In this document: piece after piece, positions 6,320 through 26,724 of the stretch
Layout: each line of letters starts with the position of its first letter
How positions within the stretch are numbered: position 1 is the first letter of the stretch
Assembly (NCBI GenBank): GCA_964631145.1
Contig: CAZVXT010000001.1
Location: 255,151 to 319,150 of the forward strand
DNA length: 64,000 nucleotides
Direction: 5' to 3'
From: an uncultured Candidatus Saccharibacteria bacterium
GTDB lineage: Bacteria > Patescibacteriota > Doudnabacteria > UBA920
Notes under the pieces: model-generated
Seen by the model: the letters and a program-made list of their open reading frames with translations, nothing else
Told to the model about the DNA's origin: nothing
Databases searched by the model: none
Made by a program: the position numbers and the translations under genes

Positions 6320-6528
6320 TAACTTCAAAAGTAATAATATAACTATGTTATTATAACCAATTTTATAAATTTTGGCAATGGTTATTAATTTTTATCGTAT
6401 ACTCTAGCAGTGCCAACCCTTTTGGGATTTACTAATTCTGTAATAAATATGAAATATTAATCTTATTTCTATGTATTAATCTAGAATTTAGCCATTATTA
6501 AATGACTAAATATTAACCCTTAAAATGA

Positions 6529-6557
6529 TTGACATATATTTAAGAGTGTCTTATAAT
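6529..6557 (+). promoter_or_regulatory. consensus sigma70-type promoter, TTGACA-17-TATAAT
   Basis: perfect -35 TTGACA (6529-6534), 17-nt spacer, perfect -10 TATAAT (6552-6557). Confidence 0.55.
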
Positions 6558-6563
6558 GTACCT

Positions 6564-6667
6564 AAATATGAGTAGTTGGAACACCCATCATAAAAATTCA
6601 ATAAAATCAGCCTTTTTAGCCAAATAACGCAAAAGTTATTGGTTATTTATAGTAGGCTGATTTTTTT
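6564..6667 (+). ncRNA. candidate roughly 100-nt small RNA, or attenuated leader of the surface-protein gene
   Basis: predicted transcription start about 7 nt after the consensus -10; the transcript would end at the branched hairpin tcagcct...aggctga plus ttttttt (6607-6667); no ORF inside. Confidence 0.3.
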
Positions 6668-6740
6668 CGTGTCCTAAACCACTTATATCTGTAACATCTT
6701 AAAATATAAAGCGTCTATATAACTGAACCGTTAACAAAGC

Positions 6741-7165: not shown

Positions 7166-10100
7166 ATGAATTTAATTAAAAAAGTTGCTGTTAGCTTGTC
7201 TTCAGTAGCTATGGTTGCTGCCATGGCCTTTGTACCTGCTGCGGCTTCTGCTGCAACTCCTGGTGAAGTATACAAGACCACTGATGGTACTGTATGGTTT
7301 ATTACCAGCGATATGCAAAAGCGTCCTTTCACTTCCGCTGGCGCTTTCTTGAGCTATGGCTTCTTGTCTTGGTCTCAAGTTAAGTCTGCTGACGCAAGTG
7401 TTACCGCTCTTCCTACAGGTGCGTTTATCGCTCCTCAAGATGGTACAGTTTTCTGTGCTACCGAAACCAAAGGAACTGACGTAAAAGGTGAATGTTCTTT
7501 AGTAACTGGCGGTCAAAAAGCTGCTTTTACTTCTGCTGACGTTTTCACTGGTCTTGGTTTCTCTTTTGCTCGTGCACAATACGGTGATTCTTCTTTCTTA
7601 AGCAAAACTACTAACGTAGCTTCTGCTTCTGAAGCACACCGCACTGGTGTATTAGTAAACAACGCTGGAACAGTTCAATTAGTATGGAATGGTGCTCTAT
7701 GTGGCGTTCCTTCAATTGACGTGTTCAACTCTTGGGGTTACAGCTTTGCAAATGCTGTAACTGCAAACGCTGCTGACAAAGCTATGACACAATCTAGTGT
7801 TATGGTTGGTCGCACAGCTGGACAATTGGTTCCAACTTGTTCAAACAACCCAGCTCCAACTGGTCCTGTAACTGCTGCTTTAGCATTTGACAACCCAGCT
7901 GCTGGAACTGTAGTAACTAACCAAGCTGCTGCAGACTTAGCAAAAATCACCTTCACTGGTTCTGGTACCGTAACTGGTTTAACCTTCCAAAGAATTGGTG
8001 TTTCTGCTGATACTTCTTTGAGCAATGTTTACTTGTTCGATGGTGCTACTCGTTTGACTGATGCATCTTCTGTATCTTCTGGTAGCATGATCAACTTCTC
8101 TAATGGTGCTGGTTTATTCACTGTAAGTGGTTCCCGCACTATTACCGTAAAATCTGACTTAAACGCTGTTAGCGGTGAAACCGTTGGTGTTAAGTTGGTT
8201 AGCGGTACTTTAGCAGGTAGCTCTAGTCTTGCAGGTGTACCATTAAATGGTAACTTGATGACTGTTGCTGGTGCTACATTGGCTGGTGTTTCTTTTGGTG
8301 CAGTAACTCCAAGTTCTGCAACAATCGATCCTGCTAAGGATGTAGTAGTATGGCAAAGCACTGCTACTGTTTCTACTCGCGACGTATGGTTAGACCGTTT
8401 GGCATTACGCGAAATTGGTTCAATCAACTACAGCGATATCAATAACTTCCGTTTGATGGTTGACGGTACAACTGTTGCAACAACATCTAACTTAGATAGC
8501 AATGGTTATGTAACCTTCTCACCTGCATCTCCAGTTAAATTAACTTCTGGTGCTCGTGTGATTAAAGTAGTCGCTGACATTGTTGGTGGTTCTACTCGTA
8601 CAGCTACATTCTCTATCAGACAAAAAGCTGACTTAGGTCTACGTGATAGTCAATATAATGTTGGTATCGCAACCGCTACAGCTACTCCTATCGCAGCTGG
8701 TACATTAACTATCTCTACTGGTAGCGTAACTGTACAAAAAGCTTCTGATTCTCCATCTACTGACGTAACTTTGGGTGGTAATGATGTTCTTCTTGGTAAG
8801 TACACTTTAACCGCTTATGGTGAAGCAGTTAAGATTGAAACTCTAAGTGTTCAAGCTGTAATGGGTGTTAACGGTACTGCTGCTACAACTATTCGTAACG
8901 GTCGTATCTTAATTGGTGGTACTCAATACGGTTCTACCACAAACATGTCTACTGCTGCTGGTACTAGCTACACTGTTAATTACACAGTACAACCTGGTAC
9001 TCCTGTAACCTTAGAAGTTCGTGGTGATATCAAAAATGGTACTGGTGCTGACTTAAATGCAAACGATACCATTTTGGCTCGTATTAAAGCTGGTACCAAC
9101 AATGGTCAAGCTCAAGTATCTGGATCTACTATCAATGTTCCAACTACTGATGTAGATGCTAATACTCGTACAGTAAAGAGCGGTTCTATTAGCTTAGCTA
9201 AGACCTCTACTTACACAAACCAAACCACAACTGTTCCTCAAACTGCATACAAGATCGCTTCTTACCAGTTAACTGGTTCTAGCATCGAAGATGTAAACGT
9301 AAATACCATTTCTATGGATTTTGCAGCAGTTGCTGGTACTACCTTTACTTCTGCTGACATGACCAATGTCTACGCTATGTATAATGGTGAAAGACTAACA
9401 ACCAAGAGCACAATTTCTGCTTCTGGTAACACTTGGTCAATTTCTAAGACCTTGCCAGCTAATGGCACTGCTACAGTTGATATCTACGGTGACGTAGGTA
9501 CTGTAATCACCGCTGCTGATTCAGCACGCGCTACAGTAACTGTTAGCGGTACAACCGTTAACTCTGCACAATCTGTAACAAGTGGTGCAGTTACAGGTCA
9601 AACCATCTTGATTGGTAGCTCTTCAGTAGCTGCTACTAAAGATGCTTCATCTCCAGTAGCTTCTAACTTAGACGATACTGGTACTGTTACTGCAGCTGCA
9701 TTCAAGTTTGCTGCAACTAACGATAGCTACACTATTAGCCAAATCGACGTTAAGTTTGCTGCTGCTCCAACTACAGTTTCAACTGTATCTTTGGAAGACA
9801 GCAATGGTAATGCAATTGGTTCTCCAAAACCAGCTGCTGGTACTGTAAGCTTCGGTGGTTTGTCTGTAATGGTCCCAGCTAACGACACTGCAGGTAAGAT
9901 TGTTCGTGTTAAACTTACTCTTTCTACTGTAGGTCCATCTGCTGGTACTTCTGGCGAAGATGTAACTGTTACTTTGGATGGCTTTAACGCTGTAAGCGCT
10001 AATGGTACATCTGGTAACAGCACAACTGACGTAGCTGCTAATGGTATGTATGTCTTCAAGTCATTACCAACCATTACTAACGTTAACTTGCCAACAACTT

Positions 10101-10600
10101 CTCTAACTGGTGGTACTCAAACCTTAGCTAAGTTTACTATTAGCTCTAATGGTACTGGTACTGTTGCTTGGAAGAAGATTGCCTTCACTGTAACTAAGAC
10201 TGCTGCTCCAGGTCTTGCAAGCTTTGCTGTGTATGACTCTGATACCAACACTCAAGTTGCTGGTGCCTTTACTCCAACTGGTACCTTCACTGCTGCTGGT
10301 GGTTCTGGTGGTACTCAAGTCTTCGTTGCAACTAATGAAGAACAGATCACAAGCAAGACTTACGAATTGCGTGCAACTGTTTCTGGTACCTTAGGTACTG
10401 GTGACAACGTTGTTACCAACATAGCTTCAGGTGTATCTTCACACACCGCTCCAGCTGCTTATGCAACTGTTGCTGGTACTGCTGCTACTTTCGTATGGTC
10501 TGATGTATCTGCTTCTAGCCATAGCTCATCTACAACTGACTGGAATGATGATTACTTAGTAAAGAATATCCCAACTAACGGTCAATCTTTATTACGTTAA
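7166..10600 (+). CDS. major surface (S-layer-like) protein, 1144 aa
   Basis: signal peptide ending AAASAATP; T/S/A/G/V-rich and nearly Cys-free; strong bias to GCT/GGT/ACT/GTT/TCT codons unlike the flanking genes; GGAG SD; 800-bp upstream region; strong terminator downstream. Confidence 0.6.
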   Translation: MNLIKKVAVSLSSVAMVAAMAFVPAAASAATPGEVYKTTDGTVWFITSDMQKRPFTSAGAFLSYGFLSWSQVKSADASVTALPTGAFIAPQDGTVFCATETKGTDVKGECSLVTGGQKAAFTSADVFTGLGFSFARAQYGDSSFLSKTTNVASASEAHRTGVLVNNAGTVQLVWNGALCGVPSIDVFNSWGYSFANAVTANAADKAMTQSSVMVGRTAGQLVPTCSNNPAPTGPVTAALAFDNPAAGTVVTNQAAADLAKITFTGSGTVTGLTFQRIGVSADTSLSNVYLFDGATRLTDASSVSSGSMINFSNGAGLFTVSGSRTITVKSDLNAVSGETVGVKLVSGTLAGSSSLAGVPLNGNLMTVAGATLAGVSFGAVTPSSATIDPAKDVVVWQSTATVSTRDVWLDRLALREIGSINYSDINNFRLMVDGTTVATTSNLDSNGYVTFSPASPVKLTSGARVIKVVADIVGGSTRTATFSIRQKADLGLRDSQYNVGIATATATPIAAGTLTISTGSVTVQKASDSPSTDVTLGGNDVLLGKYTLTAYGEAVKIETLSVQAVMGVNGTAATTIRNGRILIGGTQYGSTTNMSTAAGTSYTVNYTVQPGTPVTLEVRGDIKNGTGADLNANDTILARIKAGTNNGQAQVSGSTINVPTTDVDANTRTVKSGSISLAKTSTYTNQTTTVPQTAYKIASYQLTGSSIEDVNVNTISMDFAAVAGTTFTSADMTNVYAMYNGERLTTKSTISASGNTWSISKTLPANGTATVDIYGDVGTVITAADSARATVTVSGTTVNSAQSVTSGAVTGQTILIGSSSVAATKDASSPVASNLDDTGTVTAAAFKFAATNDSYTISQIDVKFAAAPTTVSTVSLEDSNGNAIGSPKPAAGTVSFGGLSVMVPANDTAGKIVRVKLTLSTVGPSAGTSGEDVTVTLDGFNAVSANGTSGNSTTDVAANGMYVFKSLPTITNVNLPTTSLTGGTQTLAKFTISSNGTGTVAWKKIAFTVTKTAAPGLASFAVYDSDTNTQVAGAFTPTGTFTAAGGSGGTQVFVATNEEQITSKTYELRATVSGTLGTGDNVVTNIASGVSSHTAPAAYATVAGTAATFVWSDVSASSHSSSTTDWNDDYLVKNIPTNGQSLLR

Positions 10601-12476: not shown

Positions 12477-12659
12477 GCAGTCATTATATCATTATTAGTA
12501 AATTTTATACTCAACCCATTTCTTTATCTAAACTTTATTTTTTCTTTATCTAAATTTTATAGTTTGTCTTATATACTAAATTTGACAAGATTTTTGGTTT
12601 TGATATTTTATAGATAATAAAAAACAAAAAGCCAAAAATAATAATTAATTCCTTATTTT

Positions 12660-15600
12660 ATGGCTCGTATAAAAAACACTAGTTTTTGTGCTAAATTAGC
12701 TGAAAAGCTAACAAGTGTGCTAGTTTTATTGCGTTCACACACAAGACTCATCTCTATGAATAGGCTAACTGCGTCTGCGTTAGTTTTTTTGTTGTCAATT
12801 CAGGTATTTGGTGCAATTTTTGCGCCTATTTTTATAAAACCTGTTTTTGCTCAAGAAGTTTTGCTAGATAGCGGAGCATCGTCTGTATCTGGGATTTCTA
12901 CTCTTACTCCAAATACAGATATTCCAAGCGTACCATCGCCGGCTGATCAAGTTGTGGGTATGCAGCCAGATTTTGGTATTAGTCAAAAACAGGATAATAA
13001 TTCTACAAACACTATTAAGTCTGGAGATATTAATAGCATAGACAACGCTGTAGATAGTGGTACTTTTAAAACTAACATTAAAGACAAAAATGATAGTTCA
13101 AAAACACCTGGTGTAGATTCCAAAACGCCTCAAACCGCTGCATCTTTGATGTCACCAACTGGAACAGTAATAAGCCCAGATTATTTTAGCCAGCCCCAGG
13201 CTCAAAACAAAATGACACCGAAAGTCGATAATAATACAGGTGCACTAACTTATAATTATACATTTAATCTTCCGCCAGGTCGTGGTGCAAGTTCTCCGTC
13301 TTTAGGTTTAAATTACAATAACCAAAATGCGGAAGATGGAAGTATTTTTGGCTATGGTTGGTCTTTGTCTCTACCTTATATCGAAAGAATTAATAAAACT
13401 GGTTTAAATAACTTATATTCTAGCAATACTTATAGTAGTAGTATTCATGGAGAATTGGTTAATACAACAAGTAGTAATTATGTTCCTAAAGTTCAGGACG
13501 GAACTTTCGTTAACTATGTTTTAGCTAGTGGATTTTCAATGAGAGATAGTACTGGGACAGAATATGTTTTTGGTGATACTTCTAGTAGTCAATTGTCCAA
13601 TAGTAATAACACTAAAATCTATCGCTGGTTAATTTCTAAAATTACTGATGTAAATGGGAACACTACTACTTTTACTTACATTAAAGATAGTAATCAAATT
13701 TATCCAGATAAAATTTCATATACTTCCCGTACCGGAGAAAGTGCGGTGTTTGAAGTGTATTTTAGTTATGAATTACGCCCTGATCCGATTTTAAGTTATA
13801 AAACTGGTTTTGATGTAAAAACTCTTAAAAGGACCAGTCAAATTTTAATCAAGCAAAGTGGTACACTCTTACATAAGTATGATTTTACCTATACTGCTGG
13901 CAGTAATACAGCAAGAAGCCTGCTTGCTTCTGTTATTGAAACTGGATATGACGAATCTGGAGTAGCAACAACTTTACCGGCAACAAACTTCGAATATTCT
14001 AGCGCTAGCACCGGATGGAATTATCAACCTTCAAGTTTAATCGCTCCTTTAAATCCAGATTATGGGGACCCTGTTCGTATTAATAAACCCGAAAGTCAAC
14101 TTATAGATTTAAATGGTGATAGTTATCCAGATTTGTGGCAGTCGTTTAGAGATACACCCAATGTAACTTCAAAGAATAAAATTTATTTTAGTGATACAAA
14201 TAATACTTGGGTATTGTCAACTTTAACCCCACCTGTCTTAATGAATGATTATGAAACGCGTTATGCTACTGGGGGAGTTTGGGATCAAGGTGATCGCATT
14301 GCCGATGTAAATGGTGATGGGTATCTGGACGTTATTCAGTCCGCTGATCAAAGCACTGGTATTTATAACATCTATTTTAATAATCAAGGTGCTAGTTTTA
14401 CAGGGCAGTTAAGTAATCCTACGACATTAGGATTTACTGAGTTAAGCGGTGCTAATCAAGGTTCTACAGTAGATTATCGTGCACGTACCATGGAATTAAA
14501 TGGTGATGGGCTAGTAGATATTTATTCTAACTGCTTCACTTCCTGTAATTTTAATTATCAAGTAAAAGGACAACAATTTGCTAATGGAGCTGGGTATGGC
14601 AGTGTAACTCAAACATGGAATATGCCAACCATTAATAACGGCATCTCAGATTATTTTTATGGACCACATCCTGATCGTAGCAGAGAATTTGATATTAATG
14701 GGGATGGTTTAACAGATATTGTATCTTCATATACAGCACAACCATATTGGAATATTTGGAACCAGCATTCTTTTATAAACAAAGGCGATGGTGCCTGGAA
14801 TGATTTACCTCAGTATTATTCACCGTTACCATTTTTTATTGCTAATGCCAGCTCGCAATTATTAATTATGCCTGTTGATATTAATAATGATGGTTTGGTC
14901 GATTACGTGGTTGACCCTAAAGATGGTGGATACTGGACTGATGGCGATAATATTCAACATCAAATTGGCACGTATTTAAATACTGGTAATGGTTTTGTGC
15001 GGTCTGCTAGTTTTGATTTACCAAATGCTGATACAAGCAATAGCGTAGCTGGTCAATTTTCAGAAACTGGTATATTTGCAGATGTTAATGCGGACGGACT
15101 ACAAGATATTGTCTATGGAGGAGCTCAAAATGGTGCAAATTATTATTATAAAGTTTTGTATCGTACAGGTGAAAAACCAGATCAATTAAAAAAGATTACT
15201 TTACCAGAAGGTGGTTATACTTCTGTTACATATAAATCTTCTGCCAATTACCGTAATAGCAGTAATCAAATTCTAAATCCAAATTTGCCATTTACCGTTT
15301 CAACAGTTGCTCAGATCACTAATAATGATGGTTTGGGAACTGTTCAGACATTTAGCTATTCATATGAGGGCGGTAAGTATTATTTTGGATCAAGTACAGA
15401 CAAGAAATTTGCTGGATTTGCAAAAGTTAAGATAACGGATGCTATTGGTAATACGACTGCAACTTTTTATCATCAAGGCGATAGTAGTAATTCTGCTTTA
15501 GGAGAATATCAAGATGAATCTTATAAAATTGGTAAGCCTTATCGTATTGAGCAAGCTGATAGCAATGGTAATAATTATTTAGTCACCATTAATAAATGGG

Positions 15601-18600
15601 ATAGTTTTGACCTTGGTAATAATTCTAAATTTGTTAAGCTTATACAAACTGTAGAACAAACTTTTGATGGCAATGCCACTCATAAAGACAAAGCAGAGGG
15701 GTATTCTTATAACGATGGTACAGGCAATCTGATAACACGTACAACTTATGGGGAGGTGAATAGTAGTAACGATGGTATTTTTACTGATGTTGGCAGCGAC
15801 AAAATCACTACAGATTATTCTTATGCCACGGGTAGTAGTTTAGGTGTTAGCTCTCTTCCAAGTTCTGTTACTGTAACAAATCAATCTGCTATTAAACAGG
15901 CAGAACAAAAGTTTTCTTATGATAATTTACCATGGGGTGGTATAGATAAAGGTAATTTAACAAAAACCGAAACCTGGAAAACCGGCACAAGTTATATAAC
16001 AACAACAAAAACTTATAATAGCTATGGATTAGTTACAGATGAAACTGATGGGCGAGGTAAAAATACTCATTATACTTTTGATAGTCTAAATTTGTATCCG
16101 ATAACTATCACTAATGCATTAAATCAAAGTACTCAATTTATTTATGATTATACTTTAGGCAAACCTAAACAAGTCACAGATGTAAATGGACTAGTTTTTC
16201 AAACTATATATGATGGTTTGGACAGGGTTATTTTGGAAAAGCAACCAGATGTTAGTACGCCAGCAACTTTAGTAAATAAAACAAGCTATACATATACGAG
16301 CTTGCCTGTAGGAACAAAGTTACAAAAAACAGATTATTTAGATAATAGCAACAGTGTTGATTCTTATAGTTACACTGATGGTTTTGGTCGCGTTGTTCAA
16401 ACTAGGGTAGAACAGGAAACTGCTAATCAATTTGCTGTAACTGACACTATTTATAATAATTTAGGTCAAATTTATAAAACTAGTTTACCTTACGCAAGTA
16501 CGGGATTATCCAAGACATCTGCAACTACAGATGCTAATATTCTGGTTACTTTTAGTTATGATGCCATTGGTAGGCAGGTTTCACAAACAGATATCCTTGG
16601 CTCAACAATTACTAGTTATGACGACTGGAAAACTATAATTACTGATGCTCGTGGTAAAAGTAAAAATTTGTATAAAGACGCATATAATAGATTGATTAAA
16701 GTTGATGAATTAAATAATTCTGCAGTTAGTATAACTTCATATGATTACGATAGTAGTGGCAATTTGGTTAAAATCACTGATGCTCTGGGTAATATTAGAA
16801 ATTTTGTTTATGATGGCGCTGGTCGCCGTACTTATGTAGAAGATTTGCACGCTGTAGCGGATACTTCCTTTGGCGTTTATTATTACACTTATGATGATAA
16901 TGGTAATGCAACCTCAATTACTAATCCAAATGGGCAAATTATCAATTCTACTTTTGATGATATCAATAGAAAATTAACTGAAGATTATACGGGTGCTGCA
17001 GGTGTAGAAGTTACTAATACTTATGATGCATGTACTTATGGTATAGGTAAGTTATGTACCAGCACTAATACGGGTGGTAGCGATGCTTTAACTTATAATC
17101 CTTTGGGTCAAGTTGCTAGCAAACAAACTACAATTGATGGTGTGCAGTATTTAACTACGTATAGTTACGATAGGCAAAATAATTTATTAGTAGAAGTTAA
17201 TCCAGATAGTAGCCAATTTAAATATAACTATAATACAGCCGGTCAGTTAGAAAGTACGCAGCGAAAAGAGTCTACAGATAGCACTTGGCAAAATGTTGTC
17301 ACTAATTTTGATTATGGAATTCATGGTGGATTAACCATTCAGGTTAACAATAATGGAACTACAACTACAAATACTTATGATCCTACTAAGCTGTATCGAT
17401 TAATAAGAAAACAAACCACTTCTAATGGATCTGGTAATCCAATTACCACATCTTTCTATTCTCTAGCTGGAGATGGCAGTGTTTATAATAGCGGAACAGT
17501 ATGGAGTACGGTGCATGATGCCAGTATTGGAACAGTCGCTACTTATACAACTACTCCATTATATGTAAGATCTGGAAAAAATTCCGCAACATCTTACCGT
17601 ATAGAAAGAGGGTTTTTACCTTTCGACACATCTGCAATTCCTGATACCGCAATAGTACAAGGTGCAAAATTAAAGTTATATGTTCAATCAAAGTTAAATC
17701 ATGACAATGATGGCGATGATTTTATTACAATTACTCAAGGCTCTGAACCCTCCACTTCAGTTTTAACAACAGCGGATTATTCTGCAGCGGGATCCACTAC
17801 TAATCCAACAGAAGGTATAGATATTGCAGAGCGAAAAGATATTACTGCAATTCCTGTTGCTCAATCTTTGACAATTAATTTAAATGCAACGGGACGTTCT
17901 TGGATATCCAAAACAGGATCTACTAAATTAGCTGTGCGAGAAGGGCACGATGTTGTAAACAGTCCGTTTGTGGGGGCTTCAAGTCAATATGATGAAGTTA
18001 GGTTTGCAACTTTAGAACAAGCAGGTGTTACTAATGATCCAGTGCTCGAAGTTACTTATGTTGATAATACTCCGTTAACTATTCAAGATGTTAATTACAC
18101 TTACGATGCAGTAGGAAATATAACACAAATCAATGATATATCTAGTACTTCTACTGCAAAAGTGGTAAATTATACTTATGATGATTTAAACCGTTTATCA
18201 TCTTCAGTAACTTCTTCGGTTGCATCCGGGCAGCAATCCTATAACGAAGCTTATACTTATGATGCCTTGGGTAATATTATAACTAAAACTTCTACTATAG
18301 GTTCTTCTCCTACCCAAACCTCAACCTACAGCTATGCAGGTAATGCAGGATCTAACTTTGCTAATCCTCACGCTGTAACATCCATATCAACCCTAACTAG
18401 CGGAAACCCAACACCTGTAGTAGTCAATTATTCCTACGATAATGCTGGTAATCTTATTTCAGAAAACTCTGACACCTACACTTGGAACTATAACAATACT
18501 TTAGCTTCTAGTGTGGTATCTGGCACCTCTTCTTCCTACACCTACAACTCTTCAGGGCTAAGAACAAAGCAATCAACGGGTTCTAGCTTTACTAGATACC

Positions 18601-19670
18601 CAAGTGGGGAGTACAATGTAGATAATACTGGTAAGGTTACCAAACATCTTGCAGCAGGAAGCAATCTTTCTCTAACCATAGAAGGAACAGGATCATCTAT
18701 TCTTCTTTCTTACACACATACAGATCACTTAGGTAGCTCTTCTGTCTCTACATCAAGCACAGGACAAATTCTAGAAACATCAGATTACTATCCATACGGA
18801 AACCTAAGAATCTCTTTACCATATACATCTTTCTCAGAACAGAGGAAGTACATAGGAAAAGAATATGACACCCAAACCAATCTCTCTTATCTAAATGCTA
18901 GGTACTACAAAGGAAGTATTGGAAGGTTTATTAGTGAGGATCCAGTGTTTTTATCCCTTGGTGATGCTAATGCTATTAAACCATTAACTAACCAAGATCA
19001 ATCTGTTGTTCTATCTGATCCTCAAAACTTCAACTCATACACTTATGGTAGAAGTAATCCATTGAGATATAGTGATCCGAGTGGAAACATTGCAATTGTT
19101 TCTCAGATGTTTAGGGATTTTAGTCAGGCAGGCTATGCGGGATCAACATTTTTTGAATCGGCTAGTAATAAATGGACATGGTCGGATAATCCTAGTGCAA
19201 AAATAATTTTAGGAGCCTTGGCAGATACATCACGTCAAGTTGCTACTGTGTATGATGGTCAAGCGAGCGTAAAGAACAGGTTATGGTCAGCTGCTCTTTT
19301 CTCGAGTAATTTTGCTGGAGGAGAAGAGGCTGTTTTTATCAAAGCAAGCCCTTTTGAAAAAACTTTGATAGCAAATCAAAAATCTCAAATAATAAAGGTT
19401 AGCAGTAATTTTGAGATACAAAAGTTGGTCAACACTTTATTTAAATCTACTGATGAAATGACTGGTGGTACTGCTGCTGCGGCTAAGTATGAAATTCAAA
19501 ATCCCGGATTTAAAATTGCTGGACGAAATCATATAATTAAAGCAGAACAGTCGATTAATAGAATAAATAATCTATTAAAAAAAGGAGATTTGTTCAATTT
19601 TAACAAACAAGACATTAATTTTCTTAAATCTATCAGAAAGGGGCTACAAAATGGACTCGTCGGTAAGTAA
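12660..19670 (+). CDS. Sec-signal polymorphic toxin: SpvB/TcB-like N-domain, FG-GAP-like beta-propeller, RHS/YD-repeat shell, RHS core, variable C-terminal toxin domain
   Basis: 2336 aa; probable true start at ATG 12756 (MNRLTASALVFLLSIQVFGAIFAPIFIKPVFAQE signal peptide). SpvB motif PPGRGASSPSLGLNYNN...GYGWSLSLPYIERI at about 13210-13410. Six DxNGDG-type repeats (DLNGDGYPDL, DVNGDGYLDV, ELNGDGLVDI, DINGDGLTDIV, DINNDGLVDYVV, DVNADGLQDIV) span 14100-15120. Many YD repeats (YDYDSSGNLVKITDALGN, YTYDDNGNATSITNPNGQ, and others) span 15300-18800. RHS core RYYKGSIGRFISEDPVF...NFNSYTYGRSNPLRYSDPSGN ends near 19088, followed by about 195 aa of unrecognised sequence. Confidence 0.85.
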   Translation: MARIKNTSFCAKLAEKLTSVLVLLRSHTRLISMNRLTASALVFLLSIQVFGAIFAPIFIKPVFAQEVLLDSGASSVSGISTLTPNTDIPSVPSPADQVVGMQPDFGISQKQDNNSTNTIKSGDINSIDNAVDSGTFKTNIKDKNDSSKTPGVDSKTPQTAASLMSPTGTVISPDYFSQPQAQNKMTPKVDNNTGALTYNYTFNLPPGRGASSPSLGLNYNNQNAEDGSIFGYGWSLSLPYIERINKTGLNNLYSSNTYSSSIHGELVNTTSSNYVPKVQDGTFVNYVLASGFSMRDSTGTEYVFGDTSSSQLSNSNNTKIYRWLISKITDVNGNTTTFTYIKDSNQIYPDKISYTSRTGESAVFEVYFSYELRPDPILSYKTGFDVKTLKRTSQILIKQSGTLLHKYDFTYTAGSNTARSLLASVIETGYDESGVATTLPATNFEYSSASTGWNYQPSSLIAPLNPDYGDPVRINKPESQLIDLNGDSYPDLWQSFRDTPNVTSKNKIYFSDTNNTWVLSTLTPPVLMNDYETRYATGGVWDQGDRIADVNGDGYLDVIQSADQSTGIYNIYFNNQGASFTGQLSNPTTLGFTELSGANQGSTVDYRARTMELNGDGLVDIYSNCFTSCNFNYQVKGQQFANGAGYGSVTQTWNMPTINNGISDYFYGPHPDRSREFDINGDGLTDIVSSYTAQPYWNIWNQHSFINKGDGAWNDLPQYYSPLPFFIANASSQLLIMPVDINNDGLVDYVVDPKDGGYWTDGDNIQHQIGTYLNTGNGFVRSASFDLPNADTSNSVAGQFSETGIFADVNADGLQDIVYGGAQNGANYYYKVLYRTGEKPDQLKKITLPEGGYTSVTYKSSANYRNSSNQILNPNLPFTVSTVAQITNNDGLGTVQTFSYSYEGGKYYFGSSTDKKFAGFAKVKITDAIGNTTATFYHQGDSSNSALGEYQDESYKIGKPYRIEQADSNGNNYLVTINKWDSFDLGNNSKFVKLIQTVEQTFDGNATHKDKAEGYSYNDGTGNLITRTTYGEVNSSNDGIFTDVGSDKITTDYSYATGSSLGVSSLPSSVTVTNQSAIKQAEQKFSYDNLPWGGIDKGNLTKTETWKTGTSYITTTKTYNSYGLVTDETDGRGKNTHYTFDSLNLYPITITNALNQSTQFIYDYTLGKPKQVTDVNGLVFQTIYDGLDRVILEKQPDVSTPATLVNKTSYTYTSLPVGTKLQKTDYLDNSNSVDSYSYTDGFGRVVQTRVEQETANQFAVTDTIYNNLGQIYKTSLPYASTGLSKTSATTDANILVTFSYDAIGRQVSQTDILGSTITSYDDWKTIITDARGKSKNLYKDAYNRLIKVDELNNSAVSITSYDYDSSGNLVKITDALGNIRNFVYDGAGRRTYVEDLHAVADTSFGVYYYTYDDNGNATSITNPNGQIINSTFDDINRKLTEDYTGAAGVEVTNTYDACTYGIGKLCTSTNTGGSDALTYNPLGQVASKQTTIDGVQYLTTYSYDRQNNLLVEVNPDSSQFKYNYNTAGQLESTQRKESTDSTWQNVVTNFDYGIHGGLTIQVNNNGTTTTNTYDPTKLYRLIRKQTTSNGSGNPITTSFYSLAGDGSVYNSGTVWSTVHDASIGTVATYTTTPLYVRSGKNSATSYRIERGFLPFDTSAIPDTAIVQGAKLKLYVQSKLNHDNDGDDFITITQGSEPSTSVLTTADYSAAGSTTNPTEGIDIAERKDITAIPVAQSLTINLNATGRSWISKTGSTKLAVREGHDVVNSPFVGASSQYDEVRFATLEQAGVTNDPVLEVTYVDNTPLTIQDVNYTYDAVGNITQINDISSTSTAKVVNYTYDDLNRLSSSVTSSVASGQQSYNEAYTYDALGNIITKTSTIGSSPTQTSTYSYAGNAGSNFANPHAVTSISTLTSGNPTPVVVNYSYDNAGNLISENSDTYTWNYNNTLASSVVSGTSSSYTYNSSGLRTKQSTGSSFTRYPSGEYNVDNTGKVTKHLAAGSNLSLTIEGTGSSILLSYTHTDHLGSSSVSTSSTGQILETSDYYPYGNLRISLPYTSFSEQRKYIGKEYDTQTNLSYLNARYYKGSIGRFISEDPVFLSLGDANAIKPLTNQDQSVVLSDPQNFNSYTYGRSNPLRYSDPSGNIAIVSQMFRDFSQAGYAGSTFFESASNKWTWSDNPSAKIILGALADTSRQVATVYDGQASVKNRLWSAALFSSNFAGGEEAVFIKASPFEKTLIANQKSQIIKVSSNFEIQKLVNTLFKSTDEMTGGTAAAAKYEIQNPGFKIAGRNHIIKAEQSINRINNLLKKGDLFNFNKQDINFLKSIRKGLQNGLVGK

Positions 19671-20025
19671 CATAAGTATTATTGTTGAAAATGATTTACA
19701 AGATTTTACAGCTAAATATTATCCTCATGGGTTTGATCAAACATGGAATTATTCACTATTTTCAGACATGGGAATGTATTTACAAGAATTAATTGATATT
19801 TATGATAATGAAAAAGCTCTGAAGGTAATATCATTTCTTAATGAAAGATATAAATTAAATGATATTACAAAAGATGATTATAACGCTATCGGAACAGAAA
19901 TCTTTGAACCTTTAAGCCAAGATGTAAAATACATAAAATACTTATTATCAAGCCTTAATGGTCTTGCAGTTCAAGACTTTAAAAAAGGGATCAACCAAGA
20001 TTTATTAGAAAATCTACCATCATAA
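19651..20025 (+). CDS. candidate cognate immunity protein
   Basis: 124-aa acidic ORF whose ATG overlaps the last 20 nt of the toxin gene (translational coupling); classic position for an RHS immunity gene; terminator follows. Confidence 0.5.
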   Translation: MDSSVSNISIIVENDLQDFTAKYYPHGFDQTWNYSLFSDMGMYLQELIDIYDNEKALKVISFLNERYKLNDITKDDYNAIGTEIFEPLSQDVKYIKYLLSSLNGLAVQDFKKGINQDLLENLPS

Positions 20026-20050
20026 CTATTAAGATTGACTTTTAAAAAAT

Positions 20051-20080
20051 AAAACCTATAAACTAGGTTTTATTTTTTTA
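20051..20080 (+). terminator. rho-independent terminator after the toxin-immunity pair
   Basis: aaaacctataaactaggtttt followed by a T-run. Confidence 0.65.
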
Positions 20081-20133: not shown

Positions 20134-21693
20134 ATGGCATTTTTTACAAAAAAGAAAATAATCATTGGACTAATTTTGTTAGCAGCAATCGCTGGCGGTG
20201 CTTTTATTTTTACCAGAAGTAGTACTAACCCAGAAGATGTGGTGACAGAAAAATCAGAAATTAAAGACATAAAGCAAACGGTGTTAGCAACTGGTCAAGT
20301 TAGTAGTAGTACGGACTTGAAGCTTAGTTTTAAAGGCAGTGGGGTCGTAAGAAAAATCACAGTAAAAGTAGGTGATAAAGTTAAAGAAAATCAAATACTA
20401 GCAAATTTAGATCAACGCGATCAATTGGCTGCTTTAACTCAGGCGCGAGGTGTATTAGCTCAAGCGCAAGCTAATTATAAAAAAGTAGTAGACGGTGCTA
20501 GTTCCGAAGAAGTAGTTATTGCTCAAAAGAGCGTGGATGCTGCTACTGTGTCTTTAAACAACGCCAAGCGTAATTTATCAGATACTATAAGCCAGCAAGA
20601 ACAGTTGGTTAAAAATGCTCGCAAAGCCTTATATAACTCTACAATTTCTGCTACAGCTGGAGTAGGTACTAATTCTGTTTTAAATGTTTCTGGGGCTTAT
20701 AATGGTTCTGATGCCGGTACTTATTATGTTTCTATATATAACAGCGGGGGCGGCGTTCGTTACCAATATTCTGGTTTAGAGAGCGGATCTGATTATTTAG
20801 TTACTACAGGGCTTTTACAGCTCGGGACTAAGGGTTTGTATGTTAGCTTTCCAAGTTCTTACAATATTACAGATTCTTGGTCTTTAGAGATACCAAATAC
20901 AAAAGCGTCTACTTATGTTGCCAACTTAAATGCATATAATGCAGCTTTAGAATCACAGCGTAGTGCTATTTCTGCAGCAGAAAATGCTATTTCTACTGCT
21001 CAAGCATCGTTGGATACAGCAATTGCTCAATTAAATGCAAAAAAAGCATCAGCTCGACCTGCAGATGTTGCAGCTGCAACCGCCCAAATTACTTCAGCAC
21101 AGGGTCAGGTTTTGGCAGCAGAGGCGTCTTTAGAAAACACTGTAATCACAGCCCCAGCAGAAGGTACTATCACTACAATCGATATTAAAGTTGGGCAACA
21201 GTTTGCTCCAGGTCAATCCGCAATAGTATTACAAAATGTTGACAGCTTATTAGTGGAGGCAAATATCAGCGAGGCTAATATTGCAGAAGTAAAAGTTGGA
21301 CAATCTGTCAGCTTTACTTTTGATGCCCTCGGACCAGATAAAGAATTTACTGGGTCTGTTCAATTGATAGACCCGGCATCTACAGTTGTATCTGGCGTGG
21401 TAAATTATAAGGTTACTGCAAGTTTAGATAAACAAGAAGAAATCAAACCAGGTATGACTGCTAATATGATTGTGCTTACTAACCAAAAACAAAAAGTTTT
21501 GACTATCCCTCAAAGAGCTGTATTAAATAAAGATGGTAAAAAAATAGTCAGGGTGATAAATAATTCAAAAAAGAAAACTTTTGATGAAGTTGTTGTGCAA
21601 ACAGGTTTAGAGGCAGATGGTGGATTGATAGAAATTACTAACGGTTTGTCAGTTGGAACAGAAATAGTTACGTTTATTAAAACTAAAAAATAA
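20134..21693 (+). CDS. HlyD-family periplasmic adaptor / membrane fusion protein (YknX/MacA-like)
   Basis: N-terminal TM anchor, long coiled-coil region, C-terminal beta-barrel-like segment; directly precedes an ABC ATPase and two FtsX permeases. Confidence 0.65.
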   Translation: MAFFTKKKIIIGLILLAAIAGGAFIFTRSSTNPEDVVTEKSEIKDIKQTVLATGQVSSSTDLKLSFKGSGVVRKITVKVGDKVKENQILANLDQRDQLAALTQARGVLAQAQANYKKVVDGASSEEVVIAQKSVDAATVSLNNAKRNLSDTISQQEQLVKNARKALYNSTISATAGVGTNSVLNVSGAYNGSDAGTYYVSIYNSGGGVRYQYSGLESGSDYLVTTGLLQLGTKGLYVSFPSSYNITDSWSLEIPNTKASTYVANLNAYNAALESQRSAISAAENAISTAQASLDTAIAQLNAKKASARPADVAAATAQITSAQGQVLAAEASLENTVITAPAEGTITTIDIKVGQQFAPGQSAIVLQNVDSLLVEANISEANIAEVKVGQSVSFTFDALGPDKEFTGSVQLIDPASTVVSGVVNYKVTASLDKQEEIKPGMTANMIVLTNQKQKVLTIPQRAVLNKDGKKIVRVINNSKKKTFDEVVVQTGLEADGGLIEITNGLSVGTEIVTFIKTKK

Positions 21694-21694
21694 A

Positions 21695-22411
21695 ATGTCT
21701 TTAATTACAGTTAAAGATTTAAAAAAAGATTATGAAAATGACGGTGTACTCACTCCTGTACTTAAAGGAGTGAGTTTTACCATTAATTCAGGCGAATTTG
21801 TCGCGATTATGGGACCATCTGGTAGTGGTAAGTCTACATTAATGCATATCCTAGGGTTTTTGGATAGGGCAACATCTGGGGTTTATCAATTTGAGGATGA
21901 AAATATTTTAGGTTTTGACGATGATCATTTGGCGCAAATTCGCAATCAAAGAGTTGGGTTTATTTTTCAGGCTTTTAATTTGTTACCCCGTACCTCTGTT
22001 TTAGATAACGTAAAGCTTCCTCTTTTGTATAGTGTCAAAAAGGATCATGATAAATTAGCAAAAGATGCGCTTAAATCTGTTGGATTAGAAGATAGAATGA
22101 ATTACATGAGTAATCAAATTTCTGGAGGACAAAAGCAGCGCGTTGCTATAGCTCGTGCTTTGGTAAACGATCCTGCTGTAATTTTTGCAGACGAGCCAAC
22201 TGGAAATTTGGATTCTAGATCCGGAAATACTGTAATGAAAATTTTGCAAGATTTGAACAAGCAAGGACGTACAATTATTTTGGTAACTCATGAACAAGAA
22301 ACTGCTCAACACGCAACTCGCATTATGAAGTTGCGTGATGGTTTGTTAGTAGAAGATTATCCTGTCAAAAAACGTATTTTTGCTAAGGAATATGGCGATT
22401 TAGAAAAATAA
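21695..22411 (+). CDS. ABC transporter ATP-binding protein (MacB/LolD/YknY family)
   Basis: Walker [10 protein letters not shown], signature [15 protein letters not shown], Walker [12 protein letters not shown]. Confidence 0.8.
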
Positions 22412-22412
22412 T

Positions 22413-23651
22413 ATGAAGTTATATACGGAGCTAAAAATGGTTATTTCTGGTTTACTTGCCCGTAAAGGCAGGTCTTTTTTAACTATTTTGGGTATTGTCA
22501 TTGGTGTTGCAGGGGTAATTATAATTATTTCTTTAGGTGCTGGTGCGCAAAGTTTGGTTTTATCTCAAATTAATAAATTGGGGACTAATTTGATTGGAGT
22601 ATTACCGGGAAAGTCCAACGAGAACGGTCCACCAGCTGCTGTTTTTGGTATTCAGATTACTACTCTTACAGAAGCCGATGCCGAAAGCATGCGAGATAAA
22701 TCTCGCTTTCCAAATTTGGTTGCAGTAACTTCTGGTGCGCGTGGTAGTGGCAGTGTTTCGTGGCGAGATGTTACTGTTGATACTCAGTTTACTGGTACAG
22801 ATGCATTTTACCCGGAAGTTCAAAATGTAGAACTAGAAATTGGGAGATTTTTTGATGAACGTGAATCACTGGGAAGTAATGTTATAGTTTTAGGTCATGA
22901 TGTCTATACTCAGTTATTTGAAAACCAAGAAGCTCTTGGTCAGATAGTAAAAATTAAAAATGTACCGTTTGAAGTTATCGGTGTAGTCAAAAAACAAGGT
23001 ACCGTTGCTTTTCAAAATCAAGACGATCAAGTTTATATTCCTTTGTCTATTGCTCAGCAGCAATTACTAGGTATTAAGCATTTGCAATTTATAAGAGCTA
23101 AGGCAGATTCTGCCCAAAACGTTCCTGTGCTAATTGAAGAAATGAGGCAATTATTAAGAGAAAGGCATAATATTCGTTCGGCAGATGATGAAGATTTTTC
23201 TGTTAGAGATTTAGCTGATGCCATACGTTTACTCACCACGATTACTGATGCACTCAGATTATTTTTGGTAGCAATGGCTGCTATTGCTTTGTTGGTAGGT
23301 GGTATCGGTATTATGAATGTTATGTTGGTCACTGTTGCCGAGAGAACTAGAGAAATAGGTTTGCGCAAAGCTATTGGTGCTACTAGCAATGCTATACGCA
23401 ATCAATTTTTACTAGAGGCGATTACCGTAACACTGCTTGGTGGTGTTGCTGGGGTAATAATGGGATCTATAATTTCATACTTAATTGCTTTGGGTGCTAG
23501 GTATGCTGGCTACGAATGGGATTTTGTTATCTCACTATTTTCTATAGGTATTGCTCTGGGGGTATCTGTGCTTACAGGTGTGATTTTTGGATTGTACCCA
23601 GCATTTAAAGCAAGTAAACTCGATCCTATCGAGGCATTGAGGTACGAATAA
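22413..23651 (+). CDS. ABC transporter permease, MacB/FtsX family
   Basis: N-terminal TM helix, large extracytoplasmic domain, C-terminal FtsX-type 3-TM bundle; start overlaps the upstream stop. Confidence 0.7.
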   Translation: MKLYTELKMVISGLLARKGRSFLTILGIVIGVAGVIIIISLGAGAQSLVLSQINKLGTNLIGVLPGKSNENGPPAAVFGIQITTLTEADAESMRDKSRFPNLVAVTSGARGSGSVSWRDVTVDTQFTGTDAFYPEVQNVELEIGRFFDERESLGSNVIVLGHDVYTQLFENQEALGQIVKIKNVPFEVIGVVKKQGTVAFQNQDDQVYIPLSIAQQQLLGIKHLQFIRAKADSAQNVPVLIEEMRQLLRERHNIRSADDEDFSVRDLADAIRLLTTITDALRLFLVAMAAIALLVGGIGIMNVMLVTVAERTREIGLRKAIGATSNAIRNQFLLEAITVTLLGGVAGVIMGSIISYLIALGARYAGYEWDFVISLFSIGIALGVSVLTGVIFGLYPAFKASKLDPIEALRYE

Positions 23652-24907
23652 TGTTAAATATAATAAAACAGGCAATAGCTGGGCTGCTCCGAAACCCAGC
23701 AAGAACTATATTAACAACATTGGGCATTGTTATTGGTATTGCTACAGTTATTGTTGTATTATCAGCAGGGCAAGGTTTTAATGCATTTATTAATCAGCAG
23801 ATACAAGCATACGGAACTAACAGTTTGACAGTTGAAACTCGAGTTCCTCCAACCACAAAACAACGCAATGGAGGATTTGACGCAACTAATGGTAGTGCTG
23901 CTAATCAGGCAATCGCAATAACCTCTTTAAAAAATCGAGATGTGGAAGATATAAAGAAATTGCCAAATGTTTCTGGGGTTTATGGCTCGGTAATTGGGCA
24001 AAAAGTTGTGTCTTATAAAAATACATCAAAAACCACCAACTTTTTTGGTGCCGATCCATCTAGATTTGAAATAGATTCTGGGATAATTGGAGTGGGTAGA
24101 GGATATACTGATACCGAAAATTTTGGCGCGAGCCAGGTAGCTGTATTGGGCTATAACGTAGCTAGAGATTTATTTGGTAATGATGATCCGCTTGGAAAAA
24201 CTATTCGTTTGGGAGAATATAATTTTGTAGTGATCGGGGTTTATGAAAAACGAGGAGGGGTTGGGGGGTTTGGTGAAGATGATATGGTTTTTGTACCAAT
24301 TCAGACAGCTCAAAAAAAGCTCTTAGGTATTGATTATTTATTCTTTGTAGTTGCTCAAGTTTATGATAATACTAAGGCAGAAGTAACGGCCGAAGATATA
24401 AGGTATGTTTTAAGAAGCAATCATAATATCACGGATTCTTTTAAAGATGATTTTGTAGTAAATACCCAAGCAGGAAATTTGGATACCTTTAATACTATTC
24501 TTGCAGGGCTAACTTTTTTGCTCATAGCAGTTGCTGGCATATCTTTGGTTGTAGGCGGGGTAGGGATCATGAATATTATGTACGTTGTTGTCACAGAACG
24601 CATTAGCGAGATAGGTTTAAAAAAAGCATTAGGGGCAAAAAATTCTGACATACTTAAAGAATTTCTTGCAGAATCTGTACTTTTAACTAGCGTTGGTGGG
24701 ATTATGGGAGTGGCTTTAGGGGCAGCTATTTCATTTATTATTTATATTGTTGCAAATAGTTTTGGATTTGCTTGGGCTTTTATTGTTCCTTTAAGTTCAA
24801 TTATTTTGGGCGTGGGCACAGCTTCTTTTATTGGTTTGGTTTTTGGAGTTTTTCCTGCTAGAAAAGCAAGTAAACTAGATCCAATAGTAGCTTTGGGGCA
24901 TGAATAA
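23651..24907 (+). CDS. ABC transporter permease, MacB/FtsX family (second copy)
   Basis: same architecture as the previous permease; 1-nt overlap with its stop. Confidence 0.7.
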   Translation: MLNIIKQAIAGLLRNPARTILTTLGIVIGIATVIVVLSAGQGFNAFINQQIQAYGTNSLTVETRVPPTTKQRNGGFDATNGSAANQAIAITSLKNRDVEDIKKLPNVSGVYGSVIGQKVVSYKNTSKTTNFFGADPSRFEIDSGIIGVGRGYTDTENFGASQVAVLGYNVARDLFGNDDPLGKTIRLGEYNFVVIGVYEKRGGVGGFGEDDMVFVPIQTAQKKLLGIDYLFFVVAQVYDNTKAEVTAEDIRYVLRSNHNITDSFKDDFVVNTQAGNLDTFNTILAGLTFLLIAVAGISLVVGGVGIMNIMYVVVTERISEIGLKKALGAKNSDILKEFLAESVLLTSVGGIMGVALGAAISFIIYIVANSFGFAWAFIVPLSSIILGVGTASFIGLVFGVFPARKASKLDPIVALGHE

Positions 24908-24981: not shown

Positions 24982-26724
24982 ATGATTACTGCGGATTTAA
25001 ACGCATTACTAAAGAAAAAACGCATTGTTTCTGATGCTAACTTAAAGGCATTTGAAGAAGAGTGGCACAAGGCAAAAACCCAGGTTTCTTGGGAAGATTT
25101 TTTAGTGGAGAAAAAAGCTTTAACAGAAGAACAGCTTTTAACAGTTAAGAGTGAGGAGTTTAGTGTAGAAACTGTAGATTTGAGAAATATTCAAATTCCT
25201 GAAGATGTTCTTAGTATGGTGCCAGAGCCAATTGCTCGTCGTCATAAAGTAATCAGTTTTGCTAAAGCCAAAAATGAATTGAGTTTGGCAATGGTTGATC
25301 CGACCGACCTTCAAACCAGGGAGTTTATGAAGAAGAAAGCTGGTATGGAGATTAAAGTTTTTTTAATTGGAAAAACTTCCTTAGACTTTGGGCTTTCTAA
25401 GTATCACAACAACTTAGAAGGTGAAATTAAGCACATGGTTCAGGAAGGGAAAAAGGATGATTTATCCGCAGATATTGATCCTGATGATGAGCTAAAGAAA
25501 ATGGCGGAAGAAATTCCTATTGTTCGAGTTGTAGATACTTTACTTGAGTATGCTGTTATTGAGCATGCTTCTGATATTCATATTGAGCCTCAAGAAACCT
25601 CTGTTTCAGTTAGGTATCGTATTGATGGTGTTTTGCATGATGCTATGACTTTGCCTAAAGCAATTCAAGCTGCATTAGTTGCCCGCATAAAAGTATTGTC
25701 TAACCTTAAAATAGATGAACATAGACTTCCTCAAGATGGACGTTATAAAATCGCTAAAGATGGTTATAAGTTTAGCTTGCGTATTTCTACTATTCCAATT
25801 TTTGACGGAGAAAAAGTTGTTATCCGTTTATTAGATGAATCTAGTAAGGCACTCAGTTTAGAACAGTTAGGATTTTTGTCAGAGCAGCTTGAAGTGGTAA
25901 ACAGAAATATTCATAAACCTCACGGTATGATGCTTGTAACCGGACCAACTGGTAGTGGTAAATCAACTAGCTTGTATGCTATTTTAACAATTTTAAATAC
26001 TAAACAGGTTAATATTTCTACCATCGAAGATCCAGTAGAATACCGTATGCCTGGAGCAAACCAAATGCAGGTTAATCCAAAGATTGGTTTAACTTTTGCA
26101 TTAGGACTTAGAGCTCTGCTCCGTCAAGATCCTAATATCATTATGATCGGTGAAATCCGTGACCAAGAAACTGCAGAAGAAGCTATGCACGCTGCGATGA
26201 CTGGTCATATTGTATTATCAACATTGCACACTAACTCGGCAGCGGCTAGCCCGCCCCGTTTGATTGATATTGGTATCGAGCCGTATTTAATTGCATCAAC
26301 CGTTAATGCAATTATGGCGCAGCGTTTGGTTAGGCTTATCTGTAAAGATTGTAAGACAGAAAATCCGGTAAGTAAGGACGACGTTGCAACCCTAAAAAAG
26401 CAGTTTGATTTGGATAAATTAATGACTGTAATGCAGCGTTTAGGTGTTGCTGGTAAAGCTAAAACCTTTGAACAACTTCCATTTTTCATAGGTAAAGGTT
26501 GTGATAAATGTGGTAATTCTGGTTACAAAGGACGTATTGGTATTCACGAAATTTTAGAAAATACTCCAGAAGTTCAGGATCTTATTGTAAAGCGAGCAAC
26601 TAGTCAGGATATAGAAACTCAAGCTGAAAAACAAGACATGATAACTATGTGGGAAGATGGTTTTATTAAAGCAGTTCAAGGTTCTACTACAATAGAAGAA
26701 ATATTACGTGTGACTAAAGAATGA
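24982..26724 (+). CDS. pilB: type IV pilus assembly ATPase PilB (GspE family)
   Basis: GspE N-terminal domain, Walker A GPTGSGKST, Asp box, His box, tetracysteine CKDC...CDKCG; 580 aa; TGA stop. Confidence 0.85.
   Translation: MITADLNALLKKKRIVSDANLKAFEEEWHKAKTQVSWEDFLVEKKALTEEQLLTVKSEEFSVETVDLRNIQIPEDVLSMVPEPIARRHKVISFAKAKNELSLAMVDPTDLQTREFMKKKAGMEIKVFLIGKTSLDFGLSKYHNNLEGEIKHMVQEGKKDDLSADIDPDDELKKMAEEIPIVRVVDTLLEYAVIEHASDIHIEPQETSVSVRYRIDGVLHDAMTLPKAIQAALVARIKVLSNLKIDEHRLPQDGRYKIAKDGYKFSLRISTIPIFDGEKVVIRLLDESSKALSLEQLGFLSEQLEVVNRNIHKPHGMMLVTGPTGSGKSTSLYAILTILNTKQVNISTIEDPVEYRMPGANQMQVNPKIGLTFALGLRALLRQDPNIIMIGEIRDQETAEEAMHAAMTGHIVLSTLHTNSAAASPPRLIDIGIEPYLIASTVNAIMAQRLVRLICKDCKTENPVSKDDVATLKKQFDLDKLMTVMQRLGVAGKAKTFEQLPFFIGKGCDKCGNSGYKGRIGIHEILENTPEVQDLIVKRATSQDIETQAEKQDMITMWEDGFIKAVQGSTTIEEILRVTKE

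Follow-up and report, generated by a model that had tools for sequence, protein, structure and literature searches.

We analyzed a 64-kb stretch of DNA (referred to as "the window"), taken from a 654-kb contig, and found that it encodes a large RHS-repeat protein whose gene overlaps a small downstream gene. We interpret these two genes as a polymorphic toxin-immunity unit in a Saccharibacteria-type bacterium of the candidate phyla radiation (CPR), and we assign a probability of about 0.78 to this explanation as a whole. An RHS cocoon toxin with its immunity gene is a textbook system, and RHS toxins have already been noted in one soil Saccharibacteria genome (PMC6031116). What is new is the definition of an unnamed toxin-domain family, to which the C-terminal region (CT) of the window protein belongs, together with the assignment of DUF7674 as the immunity partner of this family. 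The value of the analysis lies in annotation and in the new family, not in the concept.

The toxin gene is a single, intact open reading frame (ORF) starting with ATG and encoding 2336 aa, and it overlaps a 124-aa ORF by 20 nt; both are located exactly where a preliminary description of this DNA, whose interpretation is supported here, had placed them. For comparison, we used L003, a locus in a Candidatus Saccharibacteria metagenome-assembled genome (MAG) that is the closest genome match to the window, and the related proteins P0003, P0004 and P0017. The features of the locus are as follows.

12582-12609 (+): promoter-like site 5' of the toxin gene (TTGACA, 16 nt, TATTTT, with TG), from a consensus scan; weak, the number of such sites being equal to the shuffle expectation.
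12660-19670 (+): RHS polymorphic toxin ORF, with Pfam and NCBIfam matches.
12756-12851 (+): probable Sec signal peptide (Met33-Ala64, VFA/QE), from hydropathy and the L003 start.
13233-14012 (+): SpvB-type N-terminal domain (residues ~192-451), PF03534 at E 2e-16; 37% identity to the L003 SpvB region.
14106-15107 (+): six FG-GAP/integrin-like propeller repeats (residues 483-816), from Pfam and a regular expression; absent from the L003 homologue.
15108-18785 (+): RHS/YD-repeat shell, matched by RHS_repeat and YD_repeat_2x, with a DUF6443 match at residues 1222-1285; 44% identity to the L003 shell.
17448-18071 (+): non-RHS insertion of ~208 aa in the shell (residues 1597-1804); present in P0017, absent from L003 and P0004.
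18786-19088 (+): RHS-associated core (residues 2043-2143, TIGR03696), its end DPSGN being the presumed autoproteolysis site by family knowledge.
19089-19358 (+): CT linker or pre-toxin sub-domain (residues 2144-2233), helical; common to P0003 and P0004 only.
19359-19667 (+): toxin module of the unnamed family (residues 2234-2336), STD…GGTAAAAKYE…H2291xxK.
19651-20025 (+): immunity gene, 124 aa, ATG, divergent DUF7674-like.
20044-20078 (+): terminator-like hairpin 3' of the gene pair, with a 15-bp stem followed by a U run (-13.1 kcal/mol, z -4.7; none of 200 shuffles was as stable).

Domain searches recovered the SpvB domain, the six DxNGDG-type repeats and the YD/RHS shell named in the preliminary description, and the motifs quoted there are all in place: PPGRGASSP at residues 205-213, GYGWSLSLPYIERI at residues 231-244, RYYKGSIGRFISEDP at residues 2081-2095 and NPLRYSDPSGN at residues 2133-2143. 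Besides SpvB, Pfam matched FG-GAP_3 (E 1e-10), FG-GAP (E 8e-7) and seven stretches of RHS_repeat PF05593 (E 1e-30), and NCBIfam matched YD_repeat_2x TIGR01643 (E 4e-20). The regular expression D/ExN(G/N/A)D(G/S)xxD located the six propeller repeats at residues 483, 549, 612, 678, 740 and 808. The RHS-associated core, set beforehand as a test, was matched by TIGR03696 at residues 2043-2142 with 52.3 bits against a cutoff of 32.5. Because this core ends at residue 2143 with NPLRYSDPSGN, the CT starts at nt 19089. The propeller is optional in this lineage, since it is missing from the otherwise collinear L003 homologue (1711 aa). The sole match of the ~208-aa shell insertion was a weak one to CBM96 (E 0.0038), and the insertion could be an exposed binding module.

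A Sec signal peptide had also been claimed for the ORF. The hydrophobic segment is present, but it lies at residues 41-59, where hydropathy peaks, so that only a start of translation at Met33 (nt 12756), which gives a product of 2304 aa, would place a signal peptide at the N-terminus. The Sec-type signal candidate read from Met33 is MNRLTASALVFLLSIQVFGAIFAPIFIKPVFA followed by QE (MNRLTAS…PVFA/QE), and the L003 homologue carries a signal peptide directly at its start. Judged by hydropathy and by this L003 start, Met33-Ala64 is a probable Sec signal peptide.

As read from the sequence, the architecture is that of the TcdB/TcaC trafficking class of polymorphic toxins, which combines a signal peptide, SpvB, an integrin-like propeller and RHS (Zhang, Aravind et al. 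2012, Table 1; PMC3482391). With this class, the window protein has in common its probable signal peptide, its SpvB domain, the FG-GAP propeller and the RHS repeats, as well as a C-terminal toxin that varies and an immunity gene next to it. It differs in that its CT and immunity family fall outside the named Tox, Ntox and Imm families in Pfam, and in that its shell carries the extra ~208-aa insert.

We next describe the CT, which comprises 193 aa (residues 2144-2336) and contains no cysteine, in agreement with the cysteine-free C-terminus first reported from position 19089. Searches of Pfam, NCBIfam, PADLOC, PHROGs and PDB sequences yielded no match to the CT. Named toxin families (HNH, deaminase, ADP-ribosyltransferase, Ntox/Tox RNases, HEPN and PLD) gave no significant match, based on Pfam searches of the CT and 34 relatives, NCBIfam searches of 43 domain sequences, and PADLOC, PHROGs and PDB profile searches. 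Over the toxin module itself, Pfam matched 0 of 34 members, NCBIfam yielded scattered chance matches only among the 43 domain sequences, and a PDB sequence search with the family profile likewise returned chance matches only (E >= 0.1). By inspection, the motifs of HEPN (Rx4-6H), PLD (HxK) and Ntox33 ([DN]xHxxK) did not fit, and a text search of PMC3482391 for the GGT, PGG and HxxK motifs returned only the unrelated Ntox33. The initial statement that the CT matches no toxin family thus holds for curated libraries, but an uncurated family exists.

A word-indexed protein search with the 193-aa CT gave no match, not even to its own protein. Exhaustive phmmer against 1.8 billion representatives gave 65 matches at E<=1e-3, self included; one of these, P0005, was discarded as spurious. 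When 5.8 billion proteins were searched with a profile, 30 matches at E<=1e-3 were obtained, 25 of them new. Scanning metagenomes, mostly from soil, added 80 further loci with the toxin domain, a set biased toward members carrying GGTAGAVRxE by a profile made of 12 closer sequences. More than 160 members were found in total. By tblastn, the domain was also detected in the cultured bacteria Methylorubrum extorquens AM1, Kitasatospora, Ca. Paracaedimonas and Proteus mirabilis; none was found in phages. Because relatives occur across metagenomes and cultured bacteria, many of them on RHS proteins, the CT is not an orphan and represents a widespread but uncurated polymorphic-toxin domain.

Nearly all relatives align to CT residues ~100-193 only. 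Of 89 proteins examined, 88 end no more than 28 aa after the domain, which as a rule comes after an RHS core. The N-terminal parts of 34 members contained RHS repeats (9/34), the RHS core, SpvB, PT-TG or DUF6531. Among the longer metagenomic members, 18 of 40 carried RHS repeats, and a consensus RHS core (…DPxG) lies just 5' of the module. The family alignment reads L(F/Y)xxxDxxPGGTAGAxRxExxTGxxVGGxxHxxKA…LSxxD…DLxxAL, in which the His corresponding to H2291 is invariant and the GGT, Ala and Lys are near-invariant. The window CT carries H2291, G2269, G2270, T2271, A2274 and K2294, and a family profile from which it had been left out gave it 83 bits (E 1e-25). The module is basic, with an isoelectric point (pI) of 10.0 in the window and a family median of 9.5. 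The GC content is 0.30 in the toxin module, 0.27 in the immunity gene and 0.35 in the shell, which is weak evidence.

The second gene was described beforehand as an acidic immunity gene, and the relatives agree with this assignment. The 124-aa protein has a pI of 4.3 and a net charge of -10, and the partner proteins of the relatives are all acidic as well (pI 4.2-4.7). The basic toxin module and its acidic partner fit a toxin-antidote pair. In inspected neighborhoods, a DUF7674 gene lies directly downstream of the toxin domain in 6 of 7, and the downstream ORF of the seventh is cut by an insertion sequence (IS) element. Overall, 62 of 63 downstream ORFs, including that of the window, hit DUF7674, that is, 61 of 62 in the relatives. 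An ORF of 71-257 aa starting between -60 and +250 nt from the toxin stop was present in 79 of the 80 metagenome loci, where the two genes often overlap by 4 nt. The Proteus and Methylorubrum pairs also match our in-house toxin and partner profiles. DUF7674 is the sole library match of the window ORF, collinear over profile positions 18-86 of 111. Because the pairing is conserved in the relatives, we call this ORF divergent DUF7674-like despite its marginal score. The 124-aa protein is recorded on an NCBI contig of 653,896 bp and also occurs on two Logan contigs, which are identical to the window. A Shine-Dalgarno-like GAAAGGGG stands 5' of the immunity ATG, and this site together with the hairpin terminator after the pair marks a two-gene unit. 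We found no mention of DUF7674 in the literature searched.

Some loci depart from the simple two-gene arrangement. The P0069 contig (JGI 3300071358) carries two tandem DUF7674 genes (543-935 and 945-1328) after one toxin gene, which may represent an accumulation of immunity genes. At L020, the ORF 3' of the toxin gene (6369-6599) is truncated by an IS element with an rve transposase and has no Pfam match, and the toxin pair adjoins a PIN/PhdYeFM toxin-antitoxin pair. A stand-alone 146-aa toxin domain followed by DUF7674 is found at L023 (4279-5790), L024 and L025 (2776-4287); there, a DUF4417 gene precedes, its stop overlapping the start of the toxin domain, in an arrangement unrelated to RHS.

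Swapping of the C-terminus among homologous loci, which the preliminary description had proposed for comparison, was observed. By BLASTP, the L003 shell (44-49% identity) aligns with the window protein up to residue 2146, three residues past DPSGN, and continues into an unrelated CT. The shells of P0004 (~45% identity) and P0017 (~47%) align up to residues 2336 and 2329, respectively, and both proteins keep a CT of the window family, with 39% and 35% identity in the last segment. The same toxin module is also found on shells that are ~25% identical to that of the window or without detectable similarity to it. In L003, a 76-aa ORF overlaps the RHS stop by 4 nt, matches Pfam DUF2283 (E 1e-12) and is followed by PilB, so that the locus is syntenic with the window. 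This pattern is as expected if CT/immunity cassettes recombine at the core boundary. A DUF4258-like identity first considered for the L003 CT was dropped after Pfam gave no DUF4258 match, and its DUF2283 partner alone is claimed here.

Related cassettes outside Saccharibacteria were seen in Proteus mirabilis H63 (L106, NZ_OL790811; a 4-Mb record labelled plasmid). At positions 2308-6683 of this locus, orphan Rhs-CT cassettes are arrayed, with MAGGINLYAYAPN…WVDPWG at the start of each. One cassette (5848-6282) contains the window toxin domain (82 bits) and is overlapped by a DUF7674-like gene (6279-6683). E. coli genomes compared with the Proteus cassette had only RHS-core DNA in common. A separate observation concerns a pre-toxin linker, W.KEFITGQQSW…DHPY.TGAAVG…YLGG.GT.CIA.C, which is Gly/Ala-rich and hydrophobic and connects the RHS core to either of two unrelated toxin domains (the 9760-10000 region of L003, P0014, P0018, P0025, P0054 and P0062). 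This shared linker may be a common translocation module.

Based on these data and by analogy with characterized systems, we propose the following course of action for the toxin. The Sec pathway would export the large RHS protein. As suggested by Tc and Rhs structures, a TcB/TcC-like cocoon built from its RHS repeats, SpvB domain and FG-GAP propeller would enclose the 193-residue CT, and cleavage by the RHS core after DPSGN (residue 2143) would set the CT loose within this shell. On contact with a neighboring cell, either a competing epibiont or a host actinobacterium, the CT would be released into that cell and there act enzymatically on a phosphate-bearing cytoplasmic substrate; a nucleic acid or nucleotide is the most likely candidate. 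The producer and its kin would be protected by the acidic 124-aa DUF7674-like protein, which would bind and inhibit the toxin. The analysis itself shows the architecture of the protein, its place in the toxin family, the conserved pairing with DUF7674 and CT swapping at the core boundary, while secretion, autoproteolysis, encapsulation, delivery, target and catalysis are inferred.

Whether the presumed target is a rival or a host is the point on which the closest alternative turns. The toxin might be mainly a host-directed effector, used against an actinobacterial host for killing or resource release and not as a weapon against competing Saccharibacteria, with the immunity gene providing only self-protection before export. 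This is a real but doubtful possibility. The window belongs to a Saccharibacteria-type, small-genome bacterium, as indicated by its nearest genome match and by its PilB (24982-26724), which is 78% identical to L003 PilB; the reduced genome assumed in the preliminary description is in line with this identity and with the length of the source contig. A relative of Saccharibacteria with a small genome is compatible with a host-directed role, and so is the position of the locus beside type IV pilus genes, which PMC11623550 links to episymbiosis; the propeller and the CBM96-like insert could bind the host envelope. Nothing in the sequence, however, indicates the target cell. Many non-epibiont soil bacteria, as well as orphan Rhs cassettes of Proteus, also carry the toxin domain with DUF7674, and CT swapping between related Saccharibacteria is the signature of kin competition.

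To consider the activity of the CT, we examined an AlphaFold2 (AF2) model based on a 62-sequence alignment. The mean predicted local distance difference test score (pLDDT) was 79.5, with values of 88-97 over CT residues ~100-190 and 52-76 over the N-terminal linker. The toxin module is modeled as four helices with a tiny hairpin. Judged from sequence and model position, a conserved Asp and the GGT loop stand before helix 2, an Arg/Lys-x-Glu lies in helix 2, and the His, usually accompanied by Lys, opens helix 3, from which we infer that the conserved residues cluster. The invariant His, the glycine-rich loops at two helix N-termini, the pairing of a basic module with an acidic inhibitor and the lack of a hydrophobic segment in the CT together suggest an enzyme that may act on a phosphate-bearing cytoplasmic substrate, a proposal that we regard as tentative. 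Its narrower form, a nuclease or nucleotide-acting enzyme, is put forward with similar caution. In the broadest and more speculative version, which we consider somewhat unlikely, the GGTAGA…His module would be a toxin of unseen fold and activity with DUF7674 as its dedicated immunity family, delivered by a Sec-exported, TcA-independent cocoon across a Gram-positive-type envelope and serving as a CPR weapon against hosts or rivals.

The main alternative to an enzyme is a membrane-acting toxin, pore-forming or depolarising, like Tse5-CT of Pseudomonas RhsP1. In many relatives, the segment linking the RHS core to the toxin module does include hydrophobic stretches rich in Gly and Ala, and no catalytic family was detectable by Pfam or NCBIfam. 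However, no part of the window CT is hydrophobic (Kyte-Doolittle means over 19 residues peak at 0.71), and the module is polar and basic, its conserved positions being Gly, Thr, Ala, His and, as a rule, Lys, which resembles an active or binding site. Because the hydrophobic linker of the relatives also precedes the unrelated CT in L003, its role appears to be delivery, shared between different CTs, and not toxicity. We consider a membrane-acting CT improbable.

Several observations weigh against the toxin-immunity interpretation or its enzymatic extension. Toxicity of the domain family is shown by no experiment or library annotation, and the family members bearing any name are all called "hypothetical protein". 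The modeled fold offers no lead to the chemistry and resembles no solved structure: the best E values of Foldseek searches with the CT model were 0.6 against the PDB and 1.5 against BFVD. The window motif TGGTAAAAKYE departs from the consensus PGGTAGAVRxE, and a catalytic model based on His and Lys is weakened by P0003 and P0004, the two closest full-length CT relatives, in which the Lys that otherwise follows the His is missing. For the partner, the 124-aa ORF scored 19 bits against Pfam DUF7674 (cutoff 27; E 0.0015) and E 0.027 against a 62-partner profile, though it was the best of 259 window ORFs; hhalign against a five-sequence DUF7674-partner profile gave no match, and the AF2 single-sequence model of the ORF was uninformative (pLDDT 39). 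Finally, neither a TcA-like nor any other translocation partner was seen within the 64-kb window.

The sub-cutoff score and poor model of the ORF, together with the missing experimental evidence of toxicity, leave some room for a different reading in which the CT is a tail with an adhesive or regulatory role and no toxicity, and the 124-aa ORF is an unrelated small gene. This reading is very unlikely in view of the near-universal conservation of the two-gene arrangement among the relatives, often with overlapping stop and start codons. In addition, RHS cores and PT-TG precede the domain, which is also present on orphan cassettes, the charges of the two proteins are complementary, and swapping at the core boundary involves the downstream gene as well. 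Least probable is that the SpvB, propeller and RHS cocoon, although it has the build of TcB/TcC, is the TcB-TcC part of a Tc ABC toxin with TcA elsewhere in the genome and a eukaryotic target, because no other window ORF exceeds 1144 aa and the neighbors are not TcA-like, the genome is ~0.65 Mb or slightly more, bacterial targets are indicated by CT swapping and by the presence of an immunity gene dedicated to the toxin, and the Sec plus SpvB-propeller class has its own export route in non-Tc bacteria (PMC3482391). The earlier claims of WapA-like delivery and of a missing TcA-like partner apply to the 64-kb window only.

The window protein can be compared with several characterized systems. 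In the Tc toxins of Photorhabdus and Yersinia, the TcB-TcC cocoon encapsulates a C-terminal toxin, which is released by the aspartyl autoprotease of the core. The window protein resembles TcB-TcC in its SpvB N-terminus, propeller, RHS shell and core, whereas it fuses TcB and TcC in one chain with a Sec signal. Furthermore, TcA is absent from the window, the window CT is not an ADP-ribosyltransferase, and the window has an immunity gene, while Tc toxins, to our knowledge, lack one. WapA of Bacillus subtilis is a Sec-dependent, wall-associated RHS toxin with the immunity protein WapI; its CTs are tRNases, and it acts in a contact-dependent manner without a type VI secretion system (T6SS). The window protein shares with WapA the Sec signal, RHS repeats, C-terminal toxin and downstream immunity gene, and its proposed action is likewise contact-dependent and independent of a T6SS, but Pfam detected no wall-binding repeats in it, and SpvB and a propeller are found instead. 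T6SS Rhs effectors and their orphan cassettes, as in Proteus mirabilis, have in common with the window the mode of recombination at the core boundary, and one Proteus mirabilis cassette has the same toxin domain with an overlapping DUF7674-like gene. In contrast to these effectors, the window protein has a Sec signal and no PAAR or VgrG context, and delivery in a Saccharibacteria envelope must differ from that by T6SS.

Within Saccharibacteria, the soil member 'T. rhizospherense' encodes a 2487-aa RHS/YD protein with a neighboring immunity gene (PMC6031116). Like the window protein, it is a large secreted RHS polymorphic toxin with an immunity gene in a Saccharibacteria genome; compared by description only, it differs in the PA14 and galactose-binding domains reported there (PMC6031116). 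We found no paper linking Patescibacteria to this toxin.

The pairing described here gives DUF7674 a function as the immunity partner of one unnamed polymorphic-toxin domain, whose range covers soil metagenomes, Proteus mirabilis, Methylorubrum extorquens AM1 and Saccharibacteria. The domain is a candidate for a new toxin activity, being small (~100 aa), modeled with high confidence and marked by an invariant His. For CPR biology, the locus provides a concrete candidate for a contact weapon beside type IV pilus genes.

The neighborhood of the gene pair includes genes for a TPR protein, a beta-lactamase-like protein, an HlyD/YknX-MacB-type ABC exporter and PilB. The exporter (20134-24907) consists of an HlyD/YknX-like adaptor, an ABC ATPase and two MacB/FtsX permeases; it stands directly after the toxin-immunity pair and before PilB. 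In L003, PilB is kept but the exporter is missing. Upstream, positions 7166-10600 (+) encode a 1144-aa protein with a Sec signal and no Pfam match, rich in Thr, Ala, Ser, Gly and Val. Stretches over this gene have GC contents of 0.36 and 0.42, compared with ~0.31-0.34 in most of the window, and its product is probably a surface or S-layer-like protein.

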